Translations under genes and position numbers: made by a program
Part shown: positions 5,761 through 46,677 of the stretch, piece by piece
Layout of the letters: each line of letters opens with the position of its first letter
Numbering within the stretch: position 1 is the stretch's first letter
The notes under the pieces: model-generated
Seen by the model: the letters and a program-made list of their open reading frames with translations, nothing else
What the model was told of the DNA's origin: nothing
Database searches by the model: none
NCBI GenBank assembly: GCA_051941275.1
Contig: JAVEBF010000011.1
Coordinates: 1 to 59,274, forward strand
DNA: 59,274 nucleotides
From: Dirinaria sp. TL-2023a
Taxonomy: Eukaryota
Direction of reading: 5' to 3'

Positions 5761-5807
5761 GATCCAAGTAAGCTTTCAAACTTTATCGTCTTTGACCAAG
5801 TCTTACA

Positions 5808-8800
5808 TCAGGAAACCACCTGTACAAGCAGAGGACAACTCTGATACCACTCCTCAAAACTAGCAAGCACCATACCCGGCTGATCCGCCACCAGATGATC
5901 CGTCAGCTCTTCCTCTCCGCTCCCAGGCGATACCGTCCCTAGCGGCGGTTGTTCATCCCAGCCCGCAAGCTTTGTCCAAACACTCACCAAATCCCTCGCG
6001 ATCTGACTGTTCACACCCGACCAAGCACTTTGCACTTTTGTCCACTGACTGCCATCCGTGGTCGGCGGAGCGGGAAGGCCGCCGGTCTGCTCTACAGGCG
6101 TTGGACGCAGGTGCGGTCGCTCGTCGAGAGCGGAGGGGTTGGGGGGAAGTAAGGGAGAGGATTTGCCTGTTGTTTCAATGTATAAGCCTCATTCATCGAG
6201 CCTTCACCCCTGCACAAAATCAAAACAGACTTACCACTCGGATTATTGCTCCCGTCCTGGAAAACTCCCTCCGACATCGCCGTAACAGCGTTGAACTCCG
6301 GCAGCACATTCTCTGGGTCAGGAAGCACTGGCGGAGGCGCAGTGAAAGTAAATCCTATGAGATGCGAATGCGTGGTGCCTGAAGCGTCAGGAGGGTTGAG
6401 GAGGGAGGATATATTATTGCTTTTGGATGCGATGGGGTCTTGATTGGGGTCGTCTGTCACACATCTTTGCGTCAATTCTCCAGTCACGCGATTTCGAAGG
6501 GAGGAAAATCAAGTGGCAACTTACACTGCGTCCAAAGCGCATCCGGCAAATTCTTCGTGCAGGCGCTTACGGTCCATGGTTTGTCTTTATCACTGGCAAC
6601 ATCGGTTGGAGGAACAGGCGATACAATGCTAACCGTCAAGAGTGAAGTGCAAGGACTGGTCAACTGCATCGGCCTCGTATAAATCGGTGGACTCGCCGCT
6701 GCAGGATCATTCGCGGCCCCTGCACTCTGTCTCCAACTCTGCATGATCACACCATCGCCCCAACTCAAATCATCAATCGGAAACTTGCATTCAATTCTGA
6801 AACTCACACCACCAGCCCGAACAGTCCAAATATCCCCCGTCTGCCCCTGGCCGCTCGTGATCTTTTCCGTCGCGGCGCCGGCAACAAGTGTCGGGACAAT
6901 CAGCGCCGAGGAGTTTCCTGTAGACGTAAGGTTGGTTGGAGGACGAGTCTGTCTCACCAACTCGAGGAAATCAGTCCAGTTGAGGGGGGTGGGCGCGTTA
7001 TTCTGATTGCCAAAGTAGATTGAGAAGTTATGGATCTTCAGATCAACATGGACGACGCCGCCGAAGGGCGGGCCGGAAAGGTTGAGCACCGCGGAGATAT
7101 CGGCGTGGATGTTGATGTGGATCAGACCGATGTCGCATTCAAAGCCGCAGCTAGATAGAGCGTCAGCACGATCCCTTCTGCAGCCAGACAAACTCGGCAC
7201 AGAGCACATACGTGACGGAAACACCAATCTCTGCTTGGAAGAAGAAAGGCTTGAAGTTGATCAGGAAAGATGCCCAGGCTCGGAAACTACAATACCAAGT
7301 CAGCTCTTAATCCCGCGTTTGAGAGCTCCGAAAGGGTCGAAAGAACATACGTCGCGTAGATCGGCCCGGCGTTGAAAGTCGCAACGAGTTGTCCACCACC
7401 CATACAAGCCTTTGGAGTGATTGCAAAATACCCCTGGCCGGTGACGGTCAAGACGTTGCTCAAGTTCCAATTGATTCCCACTCGAGGGACGACAGGGTAG
7501 TAGCTCGGGGGTTTGTATGCCGGATGGTAGCCACCTACTGTGAAGACCCAATCTCCTAGATCGCGGCAAGTTGCGCAGATCAGTAGCAGCAACCTTGGGC
7601 TGTCGTTATGGGCGAAGTGAACTCACCTGCATGGGGAGAGGGACCAAACCAGTAGCAAAGCGCAAAGCCTCCGACTAGATGGCAATCTGCTCGCATCAGA
7701 ATCACGACCTGAGAAGCCAAACTATATGGCTAACATACCCGGGTAGAGCACAAACGAATTCGGAGTCAGCTGCGCCTGGCAAGTCAAGCTCCCACCGGTA
7801 ATATCCAACGCTGCGACAACACCCAATTCGGCATACAGGAACATCTCATTCCTGTTCTTGACATGCGGCGGCATACTTGCTGATGCAATCCCAACAATCG
7901 CCACGGTAATATCTGATGCGCTGAATTGAACTAGCGCCGCGGCGTCCATGGAGATGACCTGCACTGCGTCAAGTTTGAAACCAAAAGCGAGCCACACGGA
8001 GTCCTGTTCGACTGAAACGAAGCGGGAGAAGTGCGTCAGTGTTTCCATTGGGTCATTGGATGCTGTGACGCCTTGAACAAGGGGAAAGTTGAGGACGTCT
8101 GCTGCATTTGGAGTTCGAATGCTATAATTATATCCTGTCGCCAACTGTCAGCGAACAAAGTCCGCCGCCTGGTTCCAATGAATCGTGGAGACGTTACCAA
8201 AACCTAAGGGAAAACCCTTGTCAGCTTCTAATCATGATGCGAAATTGGGCTTGCGAGGCACATACCAACTTCGACGCCCGAAATCTCCGCAAACTCCAGG
8301 GTCAACAGCGGCCCATCAAACCTGCCAAAAATGAAGACCGACTTCAGATCCGATGAATACGTATGCTGATATTCTCCGACAGCAAGAAGCGAGTAAGGAT
8401 CGATGCTAATCGCAAGCCCCCCCTTGTAGGCCTCGTACGCTGGTGTGCTATCGATCTGGAAGACGCCCGAGATCAAGACAGGAGGAGAATTGAAGTATAC
8501 GGACATGCCAGACAGTGCAATATCAAAGTCAGTGATAACGAGGTTTTTTAACTCGTTCAGGTTGAATCTGGAGAGGGGCATTCCGACGCCAAACTGCGTT
8601 TCAAATCATGTCAGCGCTGATGACAGAATCGGGAGGGATAATCTCACGCCCGTAACTGTCAGCTGTATCGGACCGAGTGCAACGGTCGCATCGAGCAACA
8701 TATAAAGGTATCCATTTTTTGTTTGCAGACCGATCTACGACAATTTAGTGCATTAGTCAGAGCTTCTACCTTGATTTGACCTACGTTGTGAATGGTCAAA

Positions 8801-11800
8801 GGACCAATTGATCGACTCAAAGGAGCTTTGGTGCTGCCAGAATCCTGCTGAACTGCTGGACCGGCTGCTGTATTATCATCGGCAATGCCCATCATAGCAG
8901 TTGCGGTGAAGCGGGCAGCGGTTGTAGTCTTTGACTTTTTGCTGTTCTTGGCAGCAGGGATATTTCTCGTATTGGTCTGTTTCACGCGCGATATCGTGGT
9001 TGAGGGTTTCGATGCAGATGATATTTCCGGAGTGGCAGTCAAGCTTGGTGTTGCTGCCATCAGCATGGCTTGTGGAGCCACCGGAGGCGCACCGCCCTTT
9101 CCGAAGAGGTGGTCGAGGATGACATTTCCGTTCGCCTGCACAAGGAAATGATGCCCAGCAAGCAAGACGTAGGGATTTGCATTTACCGAGGAGGCATTCC
9201 CTGGCGAATTGTTTTGAAGACTGGATTGTGTGTTCTTGAACGGGATGGAGTTGTCAGCAGACATGGTACTGTTGATAAGGGAAATATCAGAGAGAGTCAA
9301 GCCGGCGGTCTGCGCTGTATTGTCCACCGTCGAGTCTCCGATCCAGATGTAATCAATCGCATCCACCGGCTGTGGGATCGGTCCCACCACAGGAACACCG
9401 GGCACAGTTGGCAAACGATCGAGCAAGACACGAATCACCCGCTTGAAACCAGGCGGCGGCGTCAAAGCCGATGCTGCGGATCGAGCACCTTGGAGCTGGA
9501 TGTAGGTGAACGACAACGTGCCATTGGCGGTACTGATGGCGATCTGGATCCAGAATATGGTTTCTTTATCTGGTTCTTTGGTGATGGACAGCGATACCGG
9601 AGGTTGCGAACCAGCAACAGGAGTCGCAGCAGGAATTTCGATATTGGCCACGAACTGCACATCTGCCAAGGTATTCAAAACATCTTGATCAACACCAAGA
9701 GCCTGGATCAAGTCGTACAGCGTCGACGACTGGCTCATGTGCGACCCCAACGACGCACGGAATGTCCATGAACTTTGCCCTGGACTGGAGCCATGGAAAT
9801 ACTGATAGCTCAAATCTAGCTCGAAGGGGCCCACTCTCAAAATTCCTGTGACAAAAAGGTTTGCGTCTCCAGTCGAATAGTCCCAGATGACTTCAAGCTC
9901 AGGTATCTCCAGAGTGCCAAGGATATCCATGACTGCATCACTGGCATCAGAGTCGAACAGGTTGTAGAGGGTGGCGAAGGAAACGTTGACGGCAGAGCCA
10001 GTCACCTGCCACGAGCTGGACAGACCTTGATCAATGTACTCAACAGAAACAGTCAATTGAGAAGCCAAGGTGGCCGGGAAGTCCCGAGGTATGAGCATGA
10101 CGCTGGTGGACAAGAGAACATCGGTTCCAGCGCCCTTGCTGTATTGCAAGGAAAAATCCAGATCGCCTAGCACAATTCGGGGCACCCCAGAGCCGCTAGT
10201 CAGCGGGAGAGACTGCAGTGTCCCAGAGAAGAGATATCGCAACTGTTTACTGCTGTCGTAGGATGCCGTGAGTGTCAGCTCATAAAATGTCGGGGACAGG
10301 TTCATGCCTCCCGGTGGAGGCGTCACATCATTTCCACAAAAGTCCGCAAAATCAACAGCGCCTGTCGGTTGCCCAAGCGGAGTGTATCGATCATAAGGCT
10401 CGATATATGGGAGCAAGGCATATGTGCTCACGTCGGGTGCGATGGAGTTCCAGAGACGAGCCGTGATCGACGGACCTGGCCAATCGAGCTCGAGCGAAAA
10501 GATGGTTTTGTTGTAGACGCTAACTTCAAACAAGATGGTTGCCGCAAGGAGGGAGAAGCCGGAGGCTGAGCCAGGATTACCGAGCACCAACGTCACATTT
10601 CGCACGGCGAAGCTGATATTCGAGGAATTGGGAAGAAGCGGCGTAGGATCGATGGATCTGTCGTTGCTAGCACTCGAATTTGACAGTACGCTGACGAGCC
10701 AGCCTTGGATCTGAGACCAGGTATAACTGTTGTTGAACTCCAATACGATGCTTGTCTTATTGTATTCAAACTTGACCCAAGCACTGATGCTCAGGCTGTC
10801 AAAATTCGATCCGAGGGTGATTTGAGTCTCCAGCCCGCATTGCGAAGTCAAATCTCGCTGGACGAAGTCGCTTGGACACTCTGCTTTGCTCAACACTACA
10901 ATTGCTGTGTTGCTTAAAGTAATGGATCCTAGAAACGAAAAATTGGTCTGAAACGTCGTCGCGAAGGCGGGATCGGTGACAGCAAAACGAAGTCGAAGCC
11001 ATGTAGAGTAAAGCACGTCGGGCTTGAAGGTCAAAGAGCTCCTGCTTCCAAGCGATGTATCGATCGTTGTCGTCAGACTACTGACTGGATCAAAGCCTGG
11101 GAGACTGAAGCCACCCGTCGTCCCAATGGGCAGGTACGTCATGCCGAAATACGATATAATCTGACCGACCGTCAACTGTGCTTGACTTGTGCTCTGAAGA
11201 CCCAGAGTCATGAGCCCATAGTCTGTCACCATAGCATCGCCGAGAGCAGGAGGAGTGGCGACGGCGGTGGCACCCATGCTGATTGTGCTGGAAGCGTCGG
11301 ATGAGAACGTGAGACTGATGGGTGTGTCAGCGACGACACCGAGGTTCAACTGGACGTTGACGGCTGTTACGCGAGCAAAAGCATTCGCGGTGTCAATGTA
11401 TCCAACTAGACTGGCTTGCTGAATTCCCAACCTGTTGTAGTATAACCTTTGAAACCACTCGTCGGCCGCGTGAACTTTTGCTGAAACAGGTGCTGGCGAA
11501 GGCGGAGGCGTGTTGTTAGGGCCGGTTGCTGGTTGCTTCCATGGGGTTGCCAAGATGATGTAGCCATTGTTCAGGTTGGCTATCCAGTCACTGAATGCAT
11601 TCGATGTGGTTGCCGGTGAAAGCGGTGCTTGGATGGTGTCAGGCGTAAAGTGGGCGAAATCCGAGCCACACAGATAAAACGGCGATGCCGGGGGGGAAGC
11701 GTTTGGACTATCTGCGGCAGTCACTGTGGCGGAGGTTACAACCTTTGATTGAAGCGGTGCAACAGTCTTGTTTGCTTGAGTTGTTGTCCGTATGGGGATT

Positions 11801-14709
11801 GTAGCTCCAGCGATCGGTGCTGATGGAGTGGAAGCGACAAGTACGTGCTTCGGCGCGGCGGATGGGCTTGATTGAGTTGCAGGCTGAATCTGAACAAAAT
11901 CCTTCTGCACAGGCATCGCATCGCCCTTGACTTCTGGCATCTCCGCGTCTGAGTCTTCCGGCGTTGCATCGGAGCCTTGATTGTCTGACAGAATCTCGGC
12001 GTCGTTTTGCGAGTCAGGGACTCCGATATTGATACTAGGATCATAGCCACCCTCTTCATCAATGTCCGTGACGTCGAAATTGGCAGAGAGCATTTCGACG
12101 TCCTCCTGCTTGAGCGCAACGTCTGAGGCCTTGAGTTTCTTTTCTCGGTTCTCCGGCGTATCTCCCTTGGTACCGTCTTCAATGGCCCTCTTTTTCTTAT
12201 TCTCAGGCGTGTCATCGGTCACAGTCTGGGTGGGAGCACCTGGGGGGGGATCGGTCTTCGGAGGCGGAGCTGGAGTTGGATTGGGGTCCTTTTCGTAGAT
12301 AGCCCATTCGTGAAGCTTCGTGCCGGTGGCGCGAAGCTCCAGGAATCTCGCAGTCGTCCCGTTCATGACACACAGCAGGGACTGGTTGGCGGCTGGCAGT
12401 TCTGTTTGCAGTTGTCCGCAAATCTTCTCCCAAAAAATTTTCAAGGCGACCACCATGGCCTTTACTCTTTTCTTCTCCCAAGCCGTTTTGGCCGCAGCGT
12501 CTTCTGTCTTGTTGCCTGTCGCATCAGGTTTAGGCATCGAGGCGTCCAAAATCCAGAACTTGTTCAGAGGGTTATCGGCCACTGTTCCGCTGTACAAATT
12601 CAGCAGCTGCTGAATGAAGACCTGGTGGTCATCCGTCAGGGTGGTAGGCAGGACGTCTGGGAGCTTGTTGAAGTTATCACAGCTAAAGCCATCGTCTCGC
12701 ACCATCCACACCGGCCACACAAATCCGTACACACGCATCCATCGCGGTTTGATCGAGAGGTACAACGCATGTAGATACATGAGTATTTCGGGCCCTGTAT
12801 GATGAGTAGAGTCATTATCATGAAATCATTGAGGAAGGTACGAGATTTGACGACGTGCTTGCAGGATCACAAAAGTGCAGACATCGATACAACGTTATTC
12901 TCAAATGCATCCAACTAGGCGGCCACTGCATATTGCAATGCCTGACCGACTGTTGAGGATGACGACAGTAAGGTACTAAAGCAACGCCATGACGTGACTT
13001 ACGCGGGTGTCCTGAGCAAAATCCGGTGTCAGCATTGTCTCGTTCGCATGACTCTTCGGAAAAGTATTTACCGTGATGATTTTTCTCCCCTGCGGGCGTA
13101 ATTACAACATTCGGTAGCAAAGTATTCAAAAGCAAAGACGACGTGGAGCCGGCTCCCCCGTGACTGCCATCGTCAGGGTTCACTCACTCTCCTGATTCTA
13201 GCAGCACTCACTGACTAATCTTCATGAATGTCGTCTTGGGATCAGAATTAGGTGCAGCTAAGAGCCAAGTGGCAATACCCCCTTCAACGTCCCAGAAAGC
13301 ATCACCAGCCTAGAACACAGTCATCAGATCCACCGTGAAAGACCAAGAATCGTGCTTCAGAGAGCAGACAGGCCGTGAGACCTGCCATGGCAGAACACCT
13401 ACCATAAAGTGCCACAATTTCCAAGACGTCCCTTCGGGTGCGTTGTCAAGAGTATCGGTCGTTGAACTCAGAATCAAGCAAGCAATTGACGGGCAGTTCA
13501 TGGCTGCCGCGGTATTGCGGACACCCGTATATCGCTTCCCTAAAGACACAGACCTCTCGTCCACAATCCGTACAATCGGATGATGCACAAAGTTGTCGTT
13601 GGTTTTGGGTGGTGTTGGCTTGACAGGGGCTGCGACCGTGGCCGATGCAGCCAAAGGCGTGTTCCCAAGGATGACCTGATCGCCGGCAACGATGAACATG
13701 CGCGGCCCCATTGACTTTGTCAAAGAATGCGCTTTCATCAGCTGCCCCGGATTCTTGATGTTCGCGTATGTGCCCGCCGGCAATGGCTTGTTGTAGAAGA
13801 CGTCCACTCCCAGGTATTCGGAATAGTCGGCAACCACCTTGCAGAGATCAAAGAACTTAAATCCCTTCTTCGTAGCCTTGCCGCTCCCGATCTTGTAGGT
13901 GTAGTAGCCAAGCAGCCCCAGCGTGTTTGGGCCCCCAGGTGTGTAGCTGCCGCCGCCTCCTCCGCCGATGCCATGATTGCAAATGAAAGTCTTGCCACTC
14001 ATACTCACCTTGGGTCTGCTGTCTGATTTATCCGTGCCCAGGCGAAAGTTATCGTTGCGGTTAGTGTCAATGTACGGCATGTAGAAGGTTGTCAACAATG
14101 TCGCAGGCGCGATGGCGGTTGGGTCAGGCGCTGGGCCCGGGACAGGAGCAGCCCTGAAGATAGTCGTCGGTTCCCCACCGGCATACTTGAAGAGAGGCAC
14201 TTGGAGACCTGCTACCGTCACTGCTAGCTGCTTGATCTGGTCTTTCTTGCTGGTCTCGGAAGCTGTTTTCAATGCGTTGAGATCATCACGAGTATTTAGG
14301 TAATTCGATATGCTTTCCTGAAGGAGGTCTTTGAGGCCTCCCCAATGGTCGATGTCCCAATGCGTAAGAATCACAGAATCAAATTGCAGCTTGCCCTTGG
14401 TCTTGGTAGGGGCGAAGGTATAGCTGTTCTCAATTCTTTCGATGCAAGCTTTGATAGGCTCCTTGCCCGTGGACAATCCGCCGTCAATCAAGACAGCTCG
14501 ATAGATGACGGGCCATTCTGCTGAGTCCGTGCTGTCGTCCTTTGCTGCGGAATCATCCACGAGCAGATGGATTGCAGCGTCGCCAATAGTGACCTAGATT
14601 ATCATCAGCAATGCGGACATTTCTCGCTGGAGCAAGCCTGCAATGCTGGGTGTCTTTGAACGTGTCTTACATTGATATGATGACTATGGACAGATAGTTT
14701 GGTCGCCAT
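5808..14709 (-). CDS. Cluster gene A: giant protein (~2,600 aa) with N-terminal ComEC/Rec2-like MBL-fold metallo-hydrolase, acidic/Pro-rich linker, beta-rich middle region and C-terminal DUF6603-like region
   Basis: Hand splicing gives one open frame. Exons: 14709-14671 (MATKLSVHSHHIN), 14593-13403 (VTIGDAAIHLL..LIDGG..THWDIDHWGG..MNCPSIA..HFM), 13309-13212 (AGDAFW..MKIS), 13163-13072 (HHGG..NHH), 13011-13003 (GHP), 12794-8785, then about 10 more exons to the stop at 5808. All junctions checked are GT..AG. C-terminal motifs GPLTIHNIGL, LDATVALGP, GFGYN, YAELG, CHLVGGFA, GDWVFTVGGYHP and YFAITPKACMGGG are recalled as DUF6603 features. Confidence 0.85.
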
Positions 14710-15762
14710 TGCGACTTTTTCGCTGTCTTCTTGATCAGCTCATCTACGTGTAGGAGAAACACATCGTTGTCAATCAATGGCGTGCTCCTGTGTGCTGGAT
14801 TCAACTCCCAACATAGCCTCAAGATATGCAAGTATCATAGTTTGTATTACCCGGCCTCTCTATCTCGCCTGAGAGTGCGTCCGTTTTAAGAGACTATGCC
14901 CGAGATGGAGGAATGCTGCCATAGTCTTTGCAAGCAAAGACGGCGTTATTGATGAGGAAAAACCAAGGCAAGTCTAGCCGTGGCAGCGCTTTTCATCACG
15001 CTCAAAAGCCACCAGAAATCGAAGCGTGAAGCACAGATACGGTCATAGATGTTCAATCAGACCCGTTAGCGCTCTCGTATATGCAGGTGTGTCGGCCGCA
15101 ATGCGACGCCGGCTTTGATGGCTCGAGCGATCTTGATGCTCCCGACAGATTCCTTCCGTACCGCATCTCGCAGAATGATCTAGACCATCGGATTTCACGT
15201 GTGGCGCATTGAACATCTTGCTAGGGTCAATTTGGTATCATCACTACTACTTGAGGGTTATGACAAGTCATAGGCGTAGGCGCCAGCAGCCAATGGGTCT
15301 ACCCGTTGCCATTACTTCGTGTTTCAGTCTTCGAAGCGTTCGTGGATACGAGATGTGATCTTGGCGACAGATTCCTTGTCACGTTTCTCCGTGATGCTGA
15401 AGACCGTAAACTCTGCACATGACACTCAGTGGCGAGATGACATTTTGACTGTCGACGCTCTGAAAGCAAGAAAAAAGCTATTCGAAGTTTGCGTAGAGAG
15501 AAATTGCAACCCTAACCCTGACCACTTGGCAGTGCTAACTAAGGTACCTTAATAATTCTGATCCAATTGGTGAGTTCGGGCTTCTTCAATGCCCTTCAAT
15601 GCCAATGGATGAAACCGCGTTCAGCCTCCCAGCAAAAGTGTAGATACTACGATTACAACACAACAAAGCTTGCTGCATTGTCACCGAATCAATACGTCAA
15701 ACTGATGGGCTGTGAGCTTGCAGGAATACGATCGCTAGAGTCTTGCGTCACGGTCTCCAGCG

Positions 15763-18700
15763 TCACTTCCTCTGCAGATTGATTTGCTGAACAGCCGAGC
15801 CTTGATTAACCCATTTGGTCTTTGCCCCATCTGCATAGAAACCATAGACCTCCGTCACGGTGATAAAGACCAAGGGCGGGAGCAAAGGCGTTCCCACGGT
15901 GATGTCTTTCCCCATGGGCCCGGCAATCTCCACCTCGTTCAACTTGAAACTCAACTGCGTGTTCTGCACCACGGGAATCGACAGATTGAGCGTGCGAGGA
16001 ATGACGCGCAGGTTTAGATACGCTGGTTGAACATCCATGTGCACCACCCACCGCTGGTTCGAGAGCATTCGAGCAGACGAGCCAGGTGACGAATTCACCG
16101 GGACGAGCCCTAATCCGCCCAAGATGTCATTCTGGATGCTCTTGCGGAGGGCTGGGTCGCCAATCGGGATTCGAAAATCGATCTCATGCAGCCTCAATGT
16201 CTGATTCACGATGATGGTGGGACTGTTGAGCACGATGCTGAAGACAATATCAGGCGGAAATGGATTCTTGGTATCGACGTATCGAGGCGGCGCCAGGTTG
16301 GGGAAAGTTTTGGTGTAGACAAATGTCGATGGGTAGATAGCGTATTGGAACTGGGATACCTGGGGCAGCGGAGGTAGATTCGGGAACGGGTTCGAGGATA
16401 TCGCACCGCCAGGCGTTGCCATACCCAGATTGAGTGCTGGTATACCTGAAGCGCTGCTTGAAGGCGCTGCCGTTGCTGGAGAGTTCGAAGCGGCTGACGT
16501 TGTCAACACAGCTGGGCTCTTGGATGCAAGCTCTGTACTAGTTGCAGAGGTATCAATAGGCATGGTTTTCCGCTGGAGAGCAGCCGCACTCGTCAAAGTA
16601 TTCAAAGCCTGGGGCGTCTTGGCAAGGGACTGTGCTTGGATTGTGGCAGAGCTGGTGGGCAAAGGTTTGGGCAGCTGCTGCTTCACGACAGGTACGCTTG
16701 ATGTCGGGCCGGATACGACTTGAGGGGGGCGAGCAGACTGGTCTGCGATTGCTAAATGAGTGCCTGCCTCGACTGGAGGGGCAACGGACGAAATGGTATC
16801 CACGTAGAGCTGTCTCGGCAGGGTTATACCAGCTGGTGTCGTCACCGTAATGGTCGAAGGCAAGACTTCCAGGTACTTCACTGTGTCGTTTAGCTGGATG
16901 GCCGTCATGCTGCTTGTGAGCAGTGGTTTGACCGGAGGACCCCATTCGGCCGGCATTTCCTTGACCAGTCCATCCGAGCTACCGAACAGCTCCTTTTCGA
17001 TCTCAGCGAAGTTGAGGCATCGTGAAGTCCAGTCGTAGGCCAATGAAGTGTTATTGATCCTGGCAAACTTGTGAGGCTCGCCAACTTCATGCAAGGCGTC
17101 ATTCGCTGCAGCTTGAGATGCCGCCGTTCTATAAACCTTCCGAAACATAAACTCAATTGCGCTAGCATCAAGACTGTCCCCGGCACTAAAACACTGCTGG
17201 TGCACGGGCTGAGTGAAGCGTATCGACGAAATCTTGCCGCTGTCTGGAAGGCGGTCAAGCAGGACCATAAGAACATCACCGGCCACTCGCTTCTGCATAA
17301 GGATCGGCGCCAGTCCACTCTTTGGTCCTTCCGGTTCATGTATAGTCAGTTGAAGGTCGGGGAAGACCTTCACCACGGCCGAACGAAGGAAGAAGCCATA
17401 GAGCGGGACTTGAGGCAAATGACCGCTGCCAAGCGGGGTGGAAAGGTACCGGTTGATTTCAACCTTGATACTCTGACGAATAGCGTCGTCATCACGCGAG
17501 AGATGATTGGCCACGCTCAAGGCGCCGTCGATCATACAATCCAGCCATGTTGGATCAATATGAAAGAATCGGATAGACTCGGCGGGGAGATGAGCTGGAT
17601 CGGTGATGAGATAGTGAAGCGGGATGCCATCGAGATACAACTTGTCCATAATCCAGTTGAACAGGAATGCCCAATCGGTTGAGACGGGTGAACTCAAATC
17701 GTTAAAAGGGACAGCGGCTGCAGGGACAGTCGCTGCCATCATCACTCTGGCAGTGGACGCTGGACGGGCTTGCTCCTTCAAAGGAGCTGCTGAAGCTAGA
17801 TGAGCCATGCTGCTCTGAACGCCTTCGACATATGCACTTTTCCACCCCGGGTCTTTGATATCTCGGCGTGTCTTGGCTACCTTTTTGCCGGCGTCGATCC
17901 ACCGATCCTTCAAAGAAGGCGGCTCACTTTGGCCCTCGAAAGGCTTCGATAGCTGTACAAGCGTCTTCGCGGTGGCTGGAAGGGCGTTTAGAGCTTGAAC
18001 TTTACTTGTTGCTGTGACCTGTGGGTCGGCGACGGCCCTGTCAGCTGCCGCTGCACCGGCGGTGTGGGCTCTTCCACGGATCCGCATGAGTGCGGCTACA
18101 AACGCCATGTCTGCAGACGCAAGCGTCTTGCCGAATTGGAAGGCAGACGAATACGATACGTCCATGATTCCGACCCGTGAATCCAGGATCTGGAAGTCTT
18201 GGCCATTGTTGGAAAATGAAGGAAGAGCTGTCGGTCGCGCGACAATGACCGGAGCCAGTGGCGACCGAGTGAAAGCTACGGTAGGCTGTCCTGGACCAGT
18301 CCGATAACGGACCAAGGAATATCCGTCAAAGAAGCGTTCCTTGAGTACCGACTGAAGCGTCGATTGTTCCGCGGCGTCGGTGATATTGTGGAGAGCGTTG
18401 CTGGACAGCTGAGCGAGGACCGAATCGGAGTGACGCAGCAAAGAGCTTTGGGTCTCGATTTGCTCGCCTATGGCTCTCATGGCTACGGCAAACATCAGTA
18501 ATTGCACAAGGTCTAGAGGGTTTCACCTGCAGTCATACCATCCACAAAATTGACACTCAATGGGGGCTGGCAGAGATACGTCCAAGAGTAAAGAGAGACG
18601 AGCGCGACTAGATCGTTTGCCGGCGGCATGGTCATGTTTTCAATGTACTCGAGATTCAGGATATGAACCGCCTGAGTCCGTGGCGCCGTATTTTGAGCGA

Positions 18701-19685
18701 TATCGGTGGGACCGGTGCGGAGAGAATGGAGCACACTGAAAAGTCCAGTATCTTCGACACCTGAATCCGCCATACCCTGGGTATTGATATTGCGGACGTG
18801 CTGTTCCGGTCAGGAAGCAGACCATGGATTCATGAAGGAGTGTGGACTTACAGCACAGTATCGGAATTGGCTCACGTCTAGCTTGGCGGCATCTGTTCGA
18901 GATTGGAAAAGACGACAAAAGAGGGAGCCGTTCATGAAGATGACCTGCACGGGCGTGTTATCATTCTGCATGTCCGCCCAGTCACCGTTAGTTCGAAAGG
19001 GCGGTATATGAACCGGCGTCGCGCTCTTCGATGACGGCGAATCCAATTGTAGATATTGTGAAAGTGGCATTGTGATAGTCGCAGTCGTCGACTGAACCAC
19101 GGCCGAGCCATCGGAAGGGGTGTAGACGGCCCCCGAGCCAGCCAGCTGATCTGATGTCAAGCGAAGCTCTTGTGCAGTGTCAGGGCCATTGATATCGAAG
19201 GGCAAAGCGGCCAGCCAAGGAACCACATCGTCATCATCAAAGTCGTTGTTGGCTACGGCCACAGCGCGTTCCCATGGGGTATGAGGGTCGTTGAAGACAA
19301 TGTGAGGCAGGATCATGGGCTGGTCTGCGTGGCCTTGAGGCGGATAGGTCGAATGAACGGCATTAGGATCGAGGGCGAAACGTGGAGCGACAACATTGAA
19401 GCGTTGAGTACCCGGATTATCGGGGGGACTGCTGATGTTGTTGGTACTGGCGGGAAAAGGCCCTTGGGGAACCTGGACCTGCTGATTGATGTTGATCGTG
19501 TAGACTCCGCCCTCAAGAGCAGGTTTGTAGTAGTTGATCAGCTGGACATCGCCCGATGCTGCGAGAGGAAGAGCCGTCTCTTCAGCGCTCTCGGCCTGAG
19601 AGCTCGCCGTCGCCAGGTTCTGCGCCTGATTGCGGATCACCAGGGTTCGTGGCCGGACGCGCGTGGTGCTCATAGTCGTCGACAT
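15763..19685 (-). CDS. Cluster gene B: uncharacterised ~1,270-aa protein (conserved core, A/P/S/T linker, C-terminal beta-rich domain)
   Basis: Three exons from ORFs 18810..19685, 18513..18773 and 15763..18507, joined by GTAAGT..ACAG (YCA|HVRNINT) and GTATGA..GTAG (FVD|AMRAIG). Motifs YYKPALEGGVYTI, APRFALD, LPHIVFNDPHTPWER, PWLA, AHVR, LVSLYSW, RSPLAP, DVSYSSAFQFGKTLA, IPLHYLI..LPAESIRFFHIDPTWLDCMIDGALS, GFFLRSAVV. Confidence 0.85.
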
Positions 19686-20119
19686 GACGATACAGCGGAG
19701 CGTGCTGGAAGAACCTTCGCCGTGGGATCAAGGCGGGTACCAAAGACTGGTAGAAGCCTGACAGCCCTCCTGCAGGTAGAGTGTAAGGTCGAGTAGGGAG
19801 CGTCTTGGTGTGAGAAGACTGGAGAAAAGCCACCACGAGCCATAGTTGCTGGGAGCCCAAGTACCATGGCATACAGAGCGTCGACTAGCCGCAGCATATG
19901 CATCAGCATCGTGTTCGTGTCGGCGGCTTCTTTTGGCGTCGTTGATGCGTTGGAGTTGTGGCCAATAATGAACTTCCTTACGATGGTTGGTGGTGATGGT
20001 GTTCGGGAGACTTGGGACGGGAATGAGCCTAGCGCTATCTGGAGTCCTGATAGATGATAGATCGATCGAAATCGGATCGGGAATTCTTTATGCAGGTGTC
20101 AATGTGAATATGGAAGCAC

Positions 20120-20410
20120 TGAGGTATAGGGTACGAGGTTACAGAACTTACAGGTACCTTAGCTTGCCGAGTACGAAGGGGAGAGAGTTACTCCGTACAT
20201 GATACTACTAAGATACTAAAGTACCTACCGTATTAGAAGCTTTCTATCAATCGCTTAGACCCATGGTAAGATGATCTAAGATAAGGTACCTAAGGTAGTT
20301 CCTGTTCCGTGCTCGAGCCGTGGTACCTTTTGGAGCTTAAGGTACCTTACCTTACCTTACTAGTATAAGCCTTAAGGTAGGTACTCCCCTAACCCTAAGT
20401 AAAGTATTTT
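20120..20410. promoter_or_regulatory. GGTACC-palindrome-rich segment with a telobox (CCCTAACCCTAA, 20387..20398) in the divergent B/C intergenic region
   Basis: AGGTACCTTA at ~20152, TAAGGTACCTAA at 20282, TGGTACCTT at 20321, TAAGGTACCTTA at 20338..20349, and (CCTTA)3. A regulatory role is inferred from position only. Confidence 0.3.
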
Positions 20411-20948
20411 CTTTCTCCCTTAGCTCTGCAGCCTCGGTACAAGTTGCCTCATTAGCCGCCATACACGAGGGCTGACACATTCGAGTGACGCTTTCCATCG
20501 ACGGCGTGATCTAGTTCTTCATGTCTTGCACCCTCGCATCCTCAGTAATATATCTGCGACTTTCTACTGAGCACGATATGCAAGCCACTATCACCTCGTA
20601 TTTGCCCTTGCAAATTTTACGCTGCCTGAAGGGTCTCGACCCCAAGCCCGCCCGCCAGCCAGCCAGCCAGCCAGTTGTGTCCCAAGATACACCAAGAACG
20701 ACAACCCAATGCAGCGCAACAGGAAGCTGCGGAAATATGCGACGATGGCAGATGCCGCACTGACTTGGCTCGATGAGGCGCTATCTTCTGGCATCTCTTT
20801 GAGATCGATGAAAACTTTCCCCGCATGATGGTCGTGAGCAGGACAAGAGCTTGTACTTCATACTATCCACTCCGCAGCTCTGGGGACTCATGGAGTGAAA
20901 AAGCATACAAGACTCGGTTCAAAGCAAAGGGTACCATAGCTCTCCGTC

Positions 20949-23900
20949 ATGTCTGGTTCTAGCTCTGGTGGCTCCACAACTGCTTCCCAAGCGACAGTGC
21001 TTGTTCCCTTGAAACTCAACGCTTTTGCCTTGACCCCCGGCACATGTGCGAATACCAACAAGTACTCAATTGCTCCCATTGCCCAGCCAAACTACACGTT
21101 TCTCAGGTTGCACGACAATCTCATTGTGCCGGATATCCTCGACCATGTTGACCTCCATCAAGTCTCTCCGGCAAACCTGAATCCGCGCTTGACAGATCTT
21201 GGGACTGGCCAAACGCGTCAGAACCGGTTGGGTGTCTATATTCACTGGACTTTACCTCCCCTCTACCGTTCTGGGTCTGCTGCTGCTCCTACCGCATCAG
21301 GGACCGCCGATTTGGCTCAAGCAGATCGAAAGCTTCGTCAAGGGTTCCCGGCTTCCTCAGCAGCTGCCCCGAGCTTTGGAGCAGCAACAGATTACAGTAC
21401 TCCAGACTTCAGACCCGTACCCAATCGATGGTGAGTCAATTGGCCGACTTGTTCTCTCAATGCTCATCATCAGCAGGCTGGTTATTCGACATATCAATGC
21501 CGCGTCGATTGCACCAGCTGGAACCAAAATTCCAGAGTTCCAGTCCTGGGTCATTGAATCTGATCGCCTCAGGAACATCAACGATGACGACCTCACTGGT
21601 GCGGACCTTGAAGTCGACGTCTCGCCTTCGACCAACCCGGTCTTGTTGGATCCGTCCAGCGGCACTGTCGTAGAAGGACAGGCCGAAGCCTTCATCGGTC
21701 AATGCACCCCTGCAGCTTCATGGAGCGAGAGTGCCGCGAGTGCAGGAAGTCATATCGACCTGACGGTCATGACCTCCTCCAACCCGCTGTTTGCCGACTA
21801 TCAGCCCCACAACAGTAATGTCTTCAGCTTCGTGGACAATTTCAGCTACACCACTGCATCGGGCTCAACAGGCTATCTCACCAAGGCTATTTGTGACTAT
21901 CAGGTCATTGGGTGGCACTCGAGTAGCGATCATGATCCCTTCACAACCGATCCCAGAGTGTCTTCTCCACCACAGGCAAACCGTCTCCAGGACTGCCAAT
22001 TGGCTCTCAAGAATGGTGATTCGGCCTCCGCCATCGCTTGGTTGAACTCGAATGCTGCGACACGCGTCTTGTGCCATGCTACCATGTACGATGTTGCCTA
22101 TGACGTCGGGAGCGTCCCGCCGACGGTATTGGCAAATACTGCAGGGCAGCTGCTCCAGCAGAGTCAGTCAATCGCTGTCGGTGTCACTCCTCTTGATGTA
22201 AGTATGCTCTGAGGCGGAGCTGCGATCCCCATCACGTCACAGACTTGCATTCCAGCCGCACCCATACTATTCCTATGCCTTCCCACCCCTGAAGAGCAGC
22301 ACATCGTGAATCTCGCTTACCTAGACCCTCAGGCGCTCATAGCTTATTGCCGTGCACATGAGACGACGGACGCGACCAACTTGGCAACGCTTGAGCAGGA
22401 TCTGCTTCGCATACAAACGCTCTTGCTGAGCGGAGAGAGCGACGATGTTGATGCTCTCCAAGCGGCTGCAGACGAGAGCTTCGAACAAGCCTTTACCCGA
22501 AGCGATGGCGGCACGGTATGGCACTTTCATCAGGAAAGCGATCCGAGCAGTGTACCTAGTACAGACCAGGTGACAGCAATCAGGACTCTGAATCAAAATC
22601 AGAAGGTCTTCGATAGTGCTGCGCGGGAAACGGCGAGCAAAAGATGGGAGCTGTTTGCGCAGTGGTGGCTTTGGGGTGAGGCTTACCATATTGTGCTTAT
22701 GGGCGTGCAAATGATTAACTCAAATGGCGACAGTGTCCGGATTCGGTCAAAGCCAGAGTACTGCGACGTTCCAGTCGAATGTAGCCAGTGTAGCACAGAG
22801 ACTTTCCGACCTGACGGGTGCGGCAGGGAGACAGATGGAGCTCGCCAATAATATCAACTCAGCCAAGAGCTCTCTCTCCAATTTAGCTACTAATCAGCAG
22901 CCGCAACAGGGAACCGACGATCGTTTCTATCAGCGTAAAGATCCCACCGTTCTTTTCGGGAATATTCAAGCAGGTTTCGAGAGTGATTTCAACACTGCGA
23001 CTAAAGTACGTCTGCAGGATCAAGGTGTGTTTCCTCTTTGAAAGTTCCCTCGAATCCGGCAATCAACACAGTAATCCGACGACTCTGACAAGCCCATCAG
23101 TCGTCACTCCCCCAGCTGGTGCGCTCGTTACTGGCTGGGCTACGCTTCCAACCACTCTTACTTCCATCATTCCCAAGCTTCCTGTATCGCTGCAGTCAAG
23201 CGCTCAGGCTTTGGCCATGGAGTTCTATCAACTCAGAACCAGCAATAATGTGACATCAGCAACGCTGCCGCAGGTGTTACCCTGGTTCCACGATGAGGCC
23301 GCGCGTTCTGAAAGCCGTGGTCGAGATCGGTGGCAAGGCACGCAGCCATGGATGCCTCTGTTCATCGAGTATGAAGCAGTGTACTACCACATTCCATTTT
23401 CCAAGTGGAAGCTCAAGGAAGCTCCGATGCTTTCCAACTGGGGGGCGTCTGTACTTCAGTAAGTCCTTCGTGATTATCACCTGATATCAAAGCTTGACCT
23501 TTTGCAGCTACGGATTCAATGACGATGTCAGCAAAAGTTCCACAGTCGACGACAGGACTATTTCCGGCCGGGTCATCCTGGAGCCTCAGGCCGCTGCGAC
23601 TTTGAGCAACACCCTCACTCAAATTCTCCAAAACACCAACGAGGGCGACCTCGAGAATCTCTACGGAATGCCAAAGTCAGAACAAGCGAGTCTCCTGGCC
23701 AACATCAGTCAGATTGAGTTCGCCTCGTCAGGAATGTATAATCTTACTTCAGATCTTCTTACGTTGCAGCAAGGTGGACAGCATGTCAAGCCGACCATCC
23801 GTCTGACAAACTCCTCACCTATAGCAGTCCAAGCAGCTACGACGGCGGCTTCTGCTATTGGCTTCACGACTACATTAATGCAGGCCATGGACACGCAGAC

Positions 23901-25745
23901 TACAATGACGCCCTACGGAGATTCTGTCGCCATGGACACGGATGCACCGCCCATGAAGCTTGTCACGCATGGCCGTTGGTTCCCCAACTTCAAAGATAGA
24001 GAGCAGGAGCTGACCAAACGTTTTTAGAGCTCATGTTCACCAAACTCAATGTCATCGACAAGTTTGGTCAAGCGATTTCGGCCATCAGCCCTGCGCCCTT
24101 GCCTTACGGCGCTCTGGTCCCGACCATCAGTCCATGCCTCTCCGATACCTACTTCCCCGGCACCATCGGAAATGTGGACCCTGCTTCGGCTACTGCTCGA
24201 GCAAATTGCATCATCTCTCAAGGCAACAACAAGTCTTGCCCATTCATCAATCTTCCTCCAGGCATCAATCAGCCAGCTAGGCTGAATGCCAAATTTGTCT
24301 CCAACGTCAACGGAAGCTGGACAACGACCAGTGAGTGGGAGGTGAGCCATCGTTTGTCAGTTAATGGTCCGGGAATGACACTGACGACCATTAGAATCCA
24401 ATCTGGGGTTGGCTCGTTGTAAATTTTGCCGGTAAGAGTTAATTCCACATTGTGTCTGCAACGCTAAAGGTCCCCTTCCTCCACAGAACAAGGTCTTCAA
24501 GTCTTCCTTGCGGACGGCACTTTCTACCGCGAGGTGCGTTTCGGCGGCAGCGCGGGAATCCAGACCACGGCGAGATGGCTTCCTTATGATCCTCCAAAAA
24601 ATCTGCCCAACACCTCGCAGCTAGACTTCCTAATCCAACAATTGAGTGGTCTGCCATACCTTAGCGCCTTCGTAGACATGATCCTGCAGAGCACCGCGAG
24701 TAATCAAACGGCCGCTCCAGACTCATATGCGACTTTCTCCTCGGCCATCATCGGCAAACCCCTGGCGCTCGTAAATATTGGCTACTCCCTCGAACTGGCT
24801 GGCCCCGAGAACAAGAACTGGAGTACTGTCAACTCTCAAGGCCCTGACCTGCACCTGCTCCAGCCAGATGAGACTCCCTTTCCCCCAGGAGCATCAGGCG
24901 GCTACAGCTTTCCCGTCAAGCTTGGCGATGCCGACCGCACCTTTGATGGCCTTATAGGCTACTTTAACAGCGCTCTGGCAACCCAAGGCGGCGCAGCATC
25001 CGCGCCTACCCCCGCAGGACAATCCGATCTCAACCTCTCCTCGATCTACACTTACTATCCCTCAACCAATATCCCTGCCCCAGCCGGCGATCCTCGTGTA
25101 CTGATCTCCTCCACTGCGCAGAATTTCCCGCTTTTCACACCTTACTACCTCCCTGCCGGCAAAGCAGGCGATCCTATCCAAGACCAAGCGAAAAACATGC
25201 AAGTCTTTGGCGCAATCATGGACCCCTTTCTCCCCATTCATGCCTACAGCGCCATTCTACCCAACAAAGCCCTGAAACTCCCGGCATATACCGTTCAAGA
25301 AGCTCTCAAGAACATCAACGCGTTCTGGCGCATCGGTCCCCTGCTCGTCGCCGCCGATGTCCCTGCGGCTTATGATCCCGCTCGCGCGATGGATAGCAAC
25401 TCCGTAGGCGTCGTCGCCAGCAGCAGCAGCAGCACCCAGACAGCAGATCCAACAGCAACGAAACCGAAAATCGCGCTTCCCCTCCCTCCTCCCGCCGCCG
25501 CCGCCGACGGCGCAGATGCCATCTATCGCTACCTGCAGCCGTACGTGGTACCCACCATCGATCCGACAACGGGCGCGAACCTGGGGGACAGAACTGAGTA
25601 TAATGTCTTTGGTATCTCAGGGGATGCTGCGGCAAAAGGGGACGCGGTGCAGGCGAGGCTGGCTGATGGGCCGTATACGGCCGTGGAGGGGTATGCGCAG
25701 ATTGTGAGGAGGACTGCTACTGCTGCTGCTGCTATATCTTCGTAA
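20949..25745 (+). CDS. Cluster gene C: uncharacterised ~1,400-aa protein
   Basis: About 9 exons joined by GT..AG introns keep one frame (PNRW|LVIR, PLD|ALIAY, HG|QLMFTKLNVIDKFGQ, EWE|NPIWGWLVVNFA|EQGLQVF). Motifs LVPLKLNAF, GVYIHWTLP, WVIESD, FADYQPHNSNVFSFVD, YQVIGW, PWMPLFIEYE, GKPLALV, FPVKLGD..DGLIGYF, MDPFLPIHAYSAILP, FWRIGPLL. Confidence 0.85.
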
Positions 25746-26368
25746 AGGGGGGAAAAGAGAGTGGTTTCGTTTCATAAGACAAAGTGGTTATGGAAATATT
25801 GACAGAGAAAAGCAAGGGGTTATCTTAAGTACTTTCCGCTGCCTCTGCTCGTATGAATATTTATACCGTTCCCCTATAATCAGGAAAATGAATTCTTATC
25901 ATCCGCTTACACTTACTACTAGATCCTGAACTTCAAGCTATAAAGAGACGTGCAACAAATTTAGCATTCTGTTTCTGAAGGGTCCAAGGGGGTCATTCTG
26001 AACTATTACTAATAGTCAACCACTTATCAACGCCCTAAATTTCACCACATGGTTCGATAGAATATCGAGTATAAGCCATTGAAATACTCCATTCTAAAAA
26101 GACAGGGCAAAATAGAAATCGATGAGCAGTTCGAATACCTCTCATAGAATAATATACGCATTTCTCATTTGCATATTGTTGTTACTTTACGAAAGCAACG
26201 TTTTACAAGATCTGAGTCCAGTGGTAACCTTCGGAGAAATCAGGCGATCATTAGGAAAGAAATAGATGGGCCATCTTATAAGCTGCGAGGTTGGAAACGC
26301 TTGCGAGAGTTCTACTGGATAAATTTGCTTCCTACCTGACCTCGTTGTCAAGTGATTTGTTGCTCCTA

Positions 26369-45650: not shown

Positions 45651-46677
45651 CAATATATTTTGAACCCTATGTCATAGTGCATTGCTCCAGGGCCATTAAA
45701 GCACTCATTATACATTCGAGATTTCGTCTGCCGGTCGATTGTCCCTCTCTGCCTTGGACATCGAAGTTTGTGAACAAAAGTCGAACAGGCACGCGAAGCC
45801 CACTAGCTGACGGGACGGAAGCTTTCCCCGGCGCTTCGCGAGCCTAGGCTCGAGCACTAGGTGCCACCAGTGTCTGCGACCCCCGGCTGTCTACAGAGAT
45901 TAGCATGAGAAATGCAGTTCTGTAACGAGCTGGTACTCTGTACACTGAGTCCGGCACGGATGGAACCTATCGTTGCATATTGGTATTTTCGCCGAGCCAA
46001 TCACTGTGTGACTGGGATCCAGACCTTGCATCTAATCGTAGGTTCCTGGTGGCTATTGGCCGGGAGCCCACACATCTCGTTTAAGGCCTGCAGGCTTAGC
46101 GCCTACCAGTTCAATTAACGGAAACGTAACCTGTACCTGTTCTCGCGGTTTGCAGAAGAATTCGGACTCAAAGCTAAGCCTAGCCGAGAGTCCCTATCAA
46201 ACATCTCTATTCGCAGCATGTCTTTAATTAGCTTCTTCGACTCTGAGCTATGCTATGAATACTTTTGTCGTTTTCACTCTGATAGAAAGTCAAGTAGACG
46301 TTCCAAATACAAGACCTCAGTCGACTGTCCCAGCTAAGCTTACGATTGTTCGAGTGTTATCACAAATGGCGAACTGATATCCTTGGGCTATCCCGGCCAA
46401 AAAAAGGATTGTAGCAGTAAGCTTTACCGAGAGCGCTAACCGGAAATATGCTCACGCTGTGGCTTTTCCTTATTCCTATGACTTGTCCCACCCGTGCCAT
46501 CCCTTTTATTGCTCTGTGATGTCGTATTTCCCGAATATGCTCTCGGCCCGGCTTGCTGTCCCGATGATGTGTGTCAACCGGAAGGATCTTAGCGACGTAA
46601 AGCTGCATTGACATTCTCACCCAGTAAGCCTTTCGCCGTGCACAGGACGACCGAAGTCCTTCAGATCCCCAGCTAAA

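Follow-up and report, generated by a model that had tools for sequence, protein, structure and literature searches.

Tc (ABC) toxin complexes consist of three very large leaderless subunits, contain no nucleoside triphosphatase (NTPase), carry a variable enzyme component and occur sporadically in bacteria. Domains of the metallo-beta-lactamase (MBL) superfamily occur in anti-phage effectors such as Avs1a, LmuA, RTasMBL and PDC-M48B and in ComEC, whose MBL domain is described in two reports as a nuclease that degrades the non-imported DNA strand (PMC12455585, PMC13539106). For fungi, a preprint describes the enterobactin operon, a bacterial operon transferred into yeasts (bioRxiv 10.1101/399394). 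Here we analyze a trio of adjacent large genes, called A, B and C, in Dirinaria sp. TL-2023a, a lichen-forming ascomycete whose genus is placed in Caliciales, Lecanoromycetes. The trio occupies positions 5808 to 25745 of a 59-kb contig (59,274 nt; GenBank assembly GCA_051941275.1, contig JAVEBF010000011.1), and this whole stretch is referred to as the window. Protein A contains DUF6603 (Pfam PF20248), a domain family comprising 4,405 sequence clusters at 50% identity, and we conclude with considerable confidence that the three genes are functionally linked and share ancestry with a bacterial gene cassette built around DUF6603.

The trio resembles this prokaryotic cassette in that the DUF6603 domain and following tail of fungal A are homologous to its DUF6603 protein (hhalign E 1.2e-58), fungal B and C are homologous to its neighbor genes, and an enzyme lies beside A. 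It differs in its introns, separate promoters and shuffled gene order and orientation, in the fusion of an MBL domain to A, in an apparently fungus-specific middle region of ~850 residues, and in a B that is one gene with an extra C-terminal domain; furthermore, no separate gene downstream of C (called D below) is seen in the fungal window. Likeness to Tc complexes extends to the subunit number, similar sizes, leaderless proteins, lack of NTPase and variable enzyme, whereas the enzyme here forms the N-terminal part of A, or is encoded by its own gene upstream, and does not sit at the C-terminus of a cocoon subunit. At the sequence level we rejected assignment as a Tc complex, since no Tc, SpvB, TcdB, Rhs or neuraminidase-like Pfam family was found in A, B, C or their bacterial homologues. 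The MBL anti-phage effectors and ComEC share with A the MBL subtype having the motifs HxDxDH, GD, HHG and GHP, but A scores below the family cut-offs where cut-offs exist, and its partners are DUF6603, B and C instead of a signal transduction ATPase with numerous domains (STAND NTPase), a protein similar to structural maintenance of chromosomes (SMC) proteins, a reverse transcriptase or a membrane channel.

The enterobactin operon is likewise reported as a multi-gene bacterial unit kept clustered and expressed in a fungus. It encodes a metabolic pathway, is confined to a narrow clade of yeasts and can be traced to a named donor family, whereas the trio encodes three giant non-enzymatic proteins and is distributed across fungal phyla, with no identified donor. 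Fungal NOD-like receptors (NLRs) have an N-terminal enzymatic domain on a very large cytosolic protein, as A has, and a patchy, multi-copy and subtelomeric distribution, and MBL is not among the effector families that the available text of one paper lists for them (PMC9815663). Unlike NLRs, the trio proteins lack a NACHT or NB-ARC NTPase, and WD40, TPR and ANK repeats are absent from them as well. An earlier note on this DNA, made by a model from the sequence alone, knew of no functional description of the three families, and we likewise found no paper on DUF6603, PF20248, IPR046538 or six fungal locus tags in the full-text literature, a search that did not cover supplementary tables.

Gene models and transcripts

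Gene A (14709..5808, minus strand) encodes 2,599 aa and has 15 GT-AG introns; gene B (19685..15763, minus) encodes 1,271 aa, has two introns (18851-18801 and 18538-18483) and is identical to the deposited protein P0121; gene C (20949..25745, plus) encodes 1,423 aa and has eight GT-AG introns. The divergent genes B and C are separated by 1,263 bp (19686-20948), presumably a shared promoter region. The models were built by a codon and splice-site dynamic programme and then refined with ortholog-guided junctions, RNA joints and one junction read directly. They agree with the earlier description of three adjacent large genes filling ~20 kb, with B and C divergent, that stay open after removal of about 25 canonical introns: all 25 modelled introns are GT-AG, 11 are RNA-confirmed, and no in-frame stop is left in A, B or C after splicing. 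The short motifs that the note had listed for the three families are all found in the respective models, namely GFGYN, GGYHP and YFAITP in A, LPHIVF, PWER, DVSY, ESIRFF and DGALS in B, and GVYIHWTLP, PNRWLV, WVIESD, DKFGQ and GWLVVN in C.

The RNA evidence comes from three RNA-seq runs of one lichen metatranscriptome sample, in which 5-8% of the sampled words from the B-C stretch were present. We found 41 RNA contigs fitting 5790-25780 at 95-99% identity and covering parts of A, B and C, and this identity level indicates that the RNA derives from a close relative and not from the strain of the window. Ten joints were obtained (five in A, one in B at 18482->18539 and four in C), all at, or at most 3 nt from, modelled introns, and such spliced joints show that the contigs derive from RNA. 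Because one joint spans a micro-exon of A and thus two introns, the ten joints confirm 11 of the 25 introns, and a loose contig end at 22733 in C supports a twelfth. These contigs can neither rank expression nor show strand, and gene parts they leave uncovered are uninformative on expression; the coexpression that the note had proposed to check therefore means here that spliced RNA of A, B and C is present in the same sample. The sequence differences from the RNA relative number 194 in total, and of 40 of them that are listed, 38 are coding and 32 of these are synonymous, which points to purifying selection on A, B and C.

The micro-exon consists of 6 nt (GTTTTG; 8198-8203, minus) between introns 8265-8204 and 8197-8135; it completes the motif GFGYN and is backed by an RNA joint 8135->8264 with three letters between. 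A second candidate in A, of 9 nt (HPR; 13003-13011, minus), was found from the ortholog alignment alone. The deposited annotation seemingly splits gene A, as P0243 (Q9191_000239, 2,102 aa) begins near residue 481 of our merged model; we favor the single 2,599-aa protein on the basis of the orthologs and the canonical splice path, and a global alignment with the ortholog P0241 gives 62.9% identity over 2,650 columns. The deposited model of C (P0001, 1,457 aa) retains intron sequence that RNA joints remove, for example 22198-22332.

The DUF6603 cassette of bacteria

Searching the fungal proteins by tblastn against 72,556 plasmid records gave matches for A in 15 records and for B and C in 10 each; B and C match an identical set of ten records, nine of which carry a match to A as well. 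On eight of these nine, the best places are ordered A-B-C on one strand within 10 kb. In annotated plasmid examples, a "DUF6603 domain-containing protein" is followed by hypothetical proteins of ~715-750 aa and 1,050-1,150 aa and then by one or two more.

We then fetched 51 bacterial loci from species-representative genomes by DUF6603 patterns only, comprising 35 from Streptomyces and Kitasatospora, 12 from Bacteroidota and one each from Myxococcales, an unclassified bacterium, Moorena and Leptonemataceae. Hidden Markov models (HMMs) made from fungal B and C alone found B in 49 and C in 48 of these loci, and both in 46, always beside A. As for the misses, two loci are at contig ends, one has a partial B without C, and in two C lies upstream of A and B falls beyond the locus; in the Leptonemataceae miss, B was located just upstream of C. 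The adjacency stated in the note of B and C homologues to DUF6603 genes in bacteria is thus borne out, and the co-occurrence check proposed with it revealed linkage in both bacteria and fungi. By the operational definition of a DUF6603-B-C cassette, i.e. the three families within ~20 kb, the window holds such a cassette.

The bacterial cassettes themselves vary. The Bacteroidota cassettes encode a giant A of ~3,200 aa and have two genes in place of a single B. Stop and start codons of successive cassette genes overlap or abut, suggesting coupled translation. Rotated orders were also found, C-X-X-A-B in one Bacteroidota genome and B-C-X-MBL-A in Leptonemataceae. As a side observation, the orders A-B-C-X, C-X-X-A-B and B-C-X-MBL-A look as if one cyclic order had been cut at different places. 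In Streptomyces lasiicapitis, and in this one locus only, a 2,280-aa open reading frame (ORF; L036:1490-8329, plus) stands just upstream of the cassette and combines an endonuclease/exonuclease/phosphatase domain, hemopexin, three ricin-type lectin repeats, a GH18 chitinase and ChiC.

The frequency of the cassette was examined in whole-genome samples, each centered on one carrier genome, with matches counted at E<=0.001. DUF6603, B and C were found in 8, 4 and 4 of 151 Bacteroidota genomes and in 4, 2 and 1 of 151 Actinomycetota genomes; among 101 genomes each, Myxococcota had DUF6603 in two (one over the cut-off) and C in one, Cyanobacteriota had DUF6603 in two and C in four, and Spirochaetota had DUF6603 and C in one each. 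In the Bacteroidota sample, B and C occur in the same four genomes, each with an adjacent DUF6603 gene, and one of the two B matches in Actinomycetota is weak and lies beside a DUF6603 gene. C was present only in the central genome of the Actinomycetota, Myxococcota and Spirochaetota samples; the four cyanobacterial C matches comprise two strong ones that share a contig with A, a fragment at a contig end and a weak one. When the central genome is left out, C is found in 3/150 Bacteroidota, 0/150 Actinomycetota, 0/100 Myxococcota, 3/100 Cyanobacteriota (one strong, one contig-end fragment and one weak) and 0/100 Spirochaetota. The cassette is therefore rare and patchy in the phyla sampled, as accessory systems are. 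These samples indicate that B and C accompany each other and A, and that DUF6603 is the wider family; not every DUF6603 gene has recognisable B and C, which were present in four of the eight DUF6603 genomes in Bacteroidota. The DUF6603 genomes without clear B and C have a more divergent cassette, in which the gene after A is a weak B match in two of the three loci fetched.

Linkage in fungi

Among the candidates scored, 135 relatives of C and 134 of B were obtained at E<=0.001, of which 120 are listed for each. Among the matches listed, named relatives of B and C belong to Lecanoromycetes, Dothideomycetes, Leotiomycetes, Sordariomycetes, Eurotiomycetes, Orbiliomycetes, Pezizomycetes and Geoglossomycetes, as well as to Saitoella (Taphrinomycotina) and a few Agaricomycetes, and A was also found in a chytrid and an Amanita. 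One C-family record, P0118, is filed under the plant Carpinus fangiana. The earlier wording, "sporadically in ascomycetes," was too narrow in scope, because the named matches come from most Pezizomycotina classes and from Saitoella, several Agaricomycetes and a chytrid. Some genomes have several gene copies.

Adjacent locus tags or a shared contig were seen in at least 12 named species. Adjacent or nearby tags occur in Dirinaria (000239/000240?-000241-000242), Polycauliona (003377-003379), Villophora, Agyrium, Glutinoglossum (004950/004951), Orbilia oligospora TWF569 (008600/008602) and Aspergillus tanneri (008793/008797), and gene pairs share one contig in Xylogone, Lindgomyces, Polyplosphaeria, Saitoella, Glonium, Septoria linicola, Dactylella, Dactylellina and Rostrohypoxylon. 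Scanning metagenomes with the fungal C alignment yielded 60 loci, 20 of them >=12 kb, and these 20 hold A in 17, B in 16 and all three genes in 15 cases, in keeping with the expectation that fungal homologues stay linked; A of the metagenome loci includes the fungus-specific middle region. Gene order and orientation vary: two loci share the arrangement of the window (A<- B<- ->C), five have <-B ->C ->A, four have <-A ->C ->B, and the rest have other orders. The presence of all three genes together in varied arrangements indicates that linkage survives rearrangement.

In 7 of 24 metagenome loci, a gene for a small four-helix membrane-like protein, of which two related kinds exist, lies beside the trio; no homologue was found in the window or the bacterial loci, and no match in PDB. 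Four of the 24 loci carry the first kind (L083:7465-8373, L099:2658-3629, L101:18228-19403 and L117:14329-15291) and three the second (L073:8641-9549, L081:15027-15890 and L094:3627-4712). These proteins of ~300 aa have conserved cysteines and may be an optional membrane partner of the trio.

At this point we should consider whether the three genes are mere neighbors without joint function, or even a product of bacterial contamination or misassembly. Exon GC content of the trio (0.52-0.58) is slightly above that of other window genes (0.49-0.53), and in some fungi A and C are on separate scaffolds, as this explanation would have it. The 25 spliceosomal introns, 11 of them RNA-confirmed, speak against it, as does the recurrence of the adjacency across bacteria and fungi in spite of rearrangement. 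Moreover, the contig carries ordinary fungal genes and opens with a telomere repeat, (CCCTAA)n, at positions 1-90 (15 units; motif count 13 against 0 expected from shuffles), so that the whole window is subtelomeric and the trio lies 5.8-25.7 kb from the chromosome end. We consider this explanation very improbable.

Ancestry

We constructed quick maximum-likelihood trees (LG+G4) with the Shimodaira-Hasegawa-like approximate likelihood-ratio test (SH-aLRT) as the only support measure; they are unrooted, bacterial sampling is thin, and long branches meet. In all three, a single branch sets the fungi apart, with 41 fungal and 20 bacterial rows in the C tree (SH-aLRT 100), 34 and 21 in the B tree (100) and 42 and 28 in the tree of the DUF6603 domain of A (98). 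In the A tree, the divergent cassette type groups with a haloarchaeal copy outside all trio-type sequences; with a divergent prokaryotic type outside fungi plus trio-type bacteria, the fungi branch within prokaryotic diversity.

The trees fit a single transfer of all three genes together, either into an early fungus or into one fungus from which they later passed to others; a fit of this kind is not proof. The earlier suggestion of a cluster kept after horizontal acquisition is thus upheld as to one fungal group in each gene tree; acquisition as a unit is what the trees fit, while the donor and the direction of transfer are what we infer. In the sequence of events we propose, the module would have passed as a unit from a prokaryote to an early fungus and would then have gained introns, the MBL fusion and the 850-residue middle region, with the cluster kept and purifying selection acting on it after the transfer.

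Domains of protein A

Lactamase_B of Pfam matches the N-terminus of A at 28.3 bits (cut-off 22.7), in the MBL-domain exons at about 12700..14709 (minus; lower coordinate approximate; about residues 1-520), which contain the motifs THWDIDH (metal-binding) and KISHHGG. The DUF6603 exons lie at about 6790..8650 (minus), and PF20248 matches ORF pieces 8228-8605, 7722-8147 and 6484-7260; the exon pieces score 48.5, 99.2 and 67.6 bits against a gathering threshold of 27 (E 1e-13 to 3e-28), and the deposited fragment P0243 gives 471.7 bits (3.5e-141, profile positions 2-499). DUF6603 in the C-terminal part of A and an MBL domain had both been predicted, and Pfam matches both, the latter at the N-terminus. 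On the alignment of 42 fungal A proteins, the layout is MBL at 1-~560, a variable acidic and proline-rich linker at ~600-850, a conserved middle region at ~850-1700, DUF6603 at ~1800-2250 and then a conserved tail.

An MBL profile from 25 fungal A proteins detected the solved MBL domains of ComEC in PDB (9ic4_A, 2.5e-10; 9vc6_A, 1.6e-9; 30bt_A, 4.4e-9) and nothing besides them. In these 25 proteins, H100, D104, H105 and D433 are invariant and D102, H463, H464 and H495 are at least 90% conserved, so the metal-ligand columns of the motifs HxDxDH, GD, HHG and GHP are invariant or nearly so. Judged from these matches, the N-terminal domain of A is a member of the metallo-beta-lactamase superfamily, of the ComEC-like subtype. 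In NCBIfam and PADLOC, the MBL stretch has weak sub-threshold matches to ComEC, Avs1a, LmuA and RTasMBL, with PADLOC scores for the fungal A MBL part of 1.4e-9 for LmuA and 2.5e-5 for Avs1a. Assignment of A as a ComEC/Rec2 competence protein (TIGR00361) was rejected: the score is 30.7 bits against 190, the match covers profile positions 600-654 alone, and hydrophobic segments are absent.

DUF6603 was present in all of 49 long or mid-length fungal A relatives scanned; one of them has a Lactamase_B match at E<=0.001 and one has H_lectin domains, and no enzyme domain beyond that single Lactamase_B match was found in the 49. A custom profile detected the MBL region in 49 of 156 A proteins; nearly all full-length ones (>2,100 aa) retain both motifs, and these are also kept in the A copy of the chytrid Spizellomyces punctatus. 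The predicted MBL fusion is thus the rule among fungal A proteins, and A forms of ~1,600 aa may be split gene models. For residues 1-1,750 of fungal A, no homologue was found in the bacterial loci; the middle region has no match among bacterial ORFs of the fetched loci, and its comparison with the N-terminal 2,000 residues of the giant Bacteroidota A gave an hhalign probability of 0.2, so far as these searches go making its ~850 residues fungus-specific. Internal repeats are not clear in this region, where the best window pair is weak, and the A alignment as a profile (A1) gave nothing significant against PDB.

An exchangeable enzyme beside A

The gene directly upstream of A encodes a class-3 lipase (Lipase_3) in 9/9 Bacteroidota loci scanned, a separate MBL protein of 521 aa in Leptonemataceae (a spirochaete) and a subtilase in one divergent cassette. 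The fungal MBL profile matches the Leptonemataceae MBL protein at E 2.1e-10 in the same two motif regions, which suggests that the N-terminal domain of fungal A is the fused counterpart of this cassette gene; pairwise BLASTP between the two was not significant. The MBL-A fusion can be regarded as a Rosetta stone that physically ties a variable bacterial enzyme gene to the DUF6603 protein.

Proteins B and C and features of the whole trio

Neither B nor C matched a family of Pfam or NCBIfam (E<=1), PADLOC or PHROG, and PDB profile searches with their alignments (A3 for B, A2 for C) gave nothing significant. A relaxed Pfam scan of 32 C members revealed no family matched by more than one member, the profiles of B and C are unrelated to each other (hhalign probability 0.1), and feature matches in the ESM Atlas for bacterial B and C were unnamed "hypothetical protein" clusters only. 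The C-terminal domain of B (P0121 1040-1271) matches weakly the N-terminus of the bacterial gene D located after C (L038-L053; hhalign 62.6, E 7e-5), and one weak genome match also falls on the ORF after C (E 2.4e-5); a direct HMM search found none.

The N-termini of A, B and C are polar, and 19-residue windows of hydropathy above 1.6 are absent from B and C and limited in A to two adjacent ones inside DUF6603; by hydropathy only, the lack of an evident signal peptide described earlier therefore stands. No Walker A motif and no match to NACHT, NB-ARC or AAA Pfam families was found in the three proteins, and with no P-loop NTPase module in A, B or C we rejected an immune protein of the NLR, STAND or AVAST (antiviral ATPase/NTPase of the STAND superfamily) type. 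A known anti-phage system was also rejected, as PADLOC-DB 2.0 has no family for bacterial A, B1, B2, C or D or for fungal B and C. A contractile injection or phage-tail-like particle was rejected in the same way, with no PHROG or Pfam match for the A core, B and C; one PHROG "tail protein" match covers the MBL stretch 447-504 of ortholog P0241 alone, and tblastn of bacterial C and bacterial A against 50,697 phage records gave no match. At the level of sequence, the core proteins of the trio thus resemble no described system, and a distant tie to a known kind of machine is possible at the fold level. New here are the fungal form, the MBL fusion, the expression and the conserved yet shuffled clustering.

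Possible function

We regard the trio as the fungal version of a three-gene module of prokaryotes, made up of a DUF6603 protein, B and C, which would act jointly. Our preferred reading, put forward tentatively, is that this module is a conflict system whose effector is a nuclease. B and C would join the DUF6603 part and the tail of A in a large soluble cytoplasmic complex that uses no NTP. The ComEC-type MBL domain would be its enzymatic arm, most likely a metal-dependent DNase, filling the slot held in bacteria by a separate upstream gene for a lipase, an MBL protein or a subtilase. The nuclease would be inactive until the scaffold is triggered, and the role would be antagonism, or else defence or regulated cell death set off by a non-self cue. 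A conflict role is favored by the combination of a fixed core and a swappable hydrolase, by patchiness, and by the occurrence on plasmids, in a subtelomere and in several copies. For the fungus, we favor, with only moderate confidence, an intracellular role in defence or regulated cell death through DNA degradation; a housekeeping role in DNA processing or structure is less likely. The subtelomeric trio lies 15 kb from an NLR gene.

Given a conflict role, we lean toward an intracellular location over export. The main rival is the toxin-delivery idea of the earlier note. If the proteins were exported or released by lysis, they could form a particle that binds a target cell and delivers a toxin, Tc-like but unrelated, in which the MBL nuclease, or elsewhere a lipase or protease, is the payload. 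Three giant subunits without NTPase or sensor domain would suit such a particle, and so would the swappable enzyme slot, the lectin-type modules in some cassettes (ConA-like in Moorena, H-type lectin on A of Xylographa), the chitinase and ricin-lectin protein of 2,280 aa upstream of one Streptomyces cassette, and a plasmid copy that adjoins VgrG-, PAAR-like- and nuclease-toxin-type genes. The fungal proteins, in contrast, have neither a signal-like N-terminus nor a membrane segment by hydropathy, and we know of no export route for a leaderless fungal protein of 2,599 aa. Pfam matches to Tc, Rhs, contractile-tail or pore-forming families are lacking, as are PHROG tail families for the A core, B and C, and MBL domains of the ComEC type are more familiar as effectors that act inside the cell or in defence, to which the PADLOC matches also belong. 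Such a particle therefore seems unlikely to us, though not as unlikely as a cellular machine without any conflict role. The latter could be a DNA-processing assembly with a ComEC-like nuclease, or a structural or developmental complex of filamentous multicellular microbes, as the MBL domain is closest to the strand-degrading nuclease domain of ComEC, carriers are mostly filamentous or complex (Streptomyces, Chitinophaga, Myxococcales, Moorena and filamentous fungi) and purifying selection is strong. A lipase or protease fills the slot elsewhere, so DNA is not the constant substrate; and rarity and patchiness in every phylum sampled, together with plasmids, a subtelomere and several copies in some genomes, fit a core cellular function poorly, and we judge a non-conflict machine rather improbable.

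Several observations weigh against the conflict system that we prefer and against its history as proposed above. About 5,300 residues without an NTPase, sensor or signalling domain are unusual for immune sensors, and such a composition is more typical of self-assembling toxin or particle proteins; no PADLOC model matches the A core, B or C; and the ConA-like protein with the Moorena cassette and the three H-type lectin domains on A of Xylographa suggest a surface target. Half of the DUF6603 genomes in the Bacteroidota sample have no clear B and C, the A and C paralogues of Orbilia oligospora ATCC 24927 are on different scaffolds, and one A of A. tanneri is on a contig other than that of B. Branching within the fungi departs from the species tree: a Dothideomycete, for example, is the partner of the chytrid copy (support 95), and Saitoella falls with Dothideomycetes and lichens. 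With unrooted trees, how many transfers took place, and in which direction, is our reading of them. The RNA is one sample of a close relative.

A bolder and more doubtful form of the conflict reading is that the core of the trio is an unrecognised NTPase-free, multi-megadalton conflict machine common to bacteria, archaea and fungi, with a swappable enzyme arm, which would have moved as a unit from a prokaryote to an early fungus and stayed clustered for hundreds of millions of years.

Other genes of the window

At 2058-4631 (plus), the window encodes an 857-aa Ser/Thr-rich protein with tandem 189-nt units at 4008-4385 and a hydrophobic C-terminus, which looks like a glycosylphosphatidylinositol (GPI)-anchored wall protein unrelated to the trio. 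The gene at 40893-45671 (minus), 15 kb from C, encodes a fungal NLR of 1,592 aa composed of a PGAP1/DUF676-type esterase, NACHT (NPHP3_N) and WD40. An ORF with an HNH_2 endonuclease domain (E 8.7e-13) is located at 52057-53271 (plus), and around it are fragments of a major facilitator superfamily (MFS) transporter, a fructosamine kinase, a carboxylesterase and a short-chain dehydrogenase.

Significance

Conserved clustering of three non-metabolic genes across fungi is rare, above all with shuffled order, and this combination argues for strong selection for joint inheritance. If the three proteins form one machine, they represent a widespread system without functional description that extends across bacteria, archaea and at least three fungal phyla, and would lengthen the short list of conflict systems that filamentous fungi and complex bacteria have in common. 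The MBL fusion makes the function of the family testable. Should the bolder reading be true, the trio would represent a trans-kingdom system of a new kind, acting in immunity, in cell death or as a toxin, with no relation to NLRs, gasdermins, Tc toxins or phage-tail devices.

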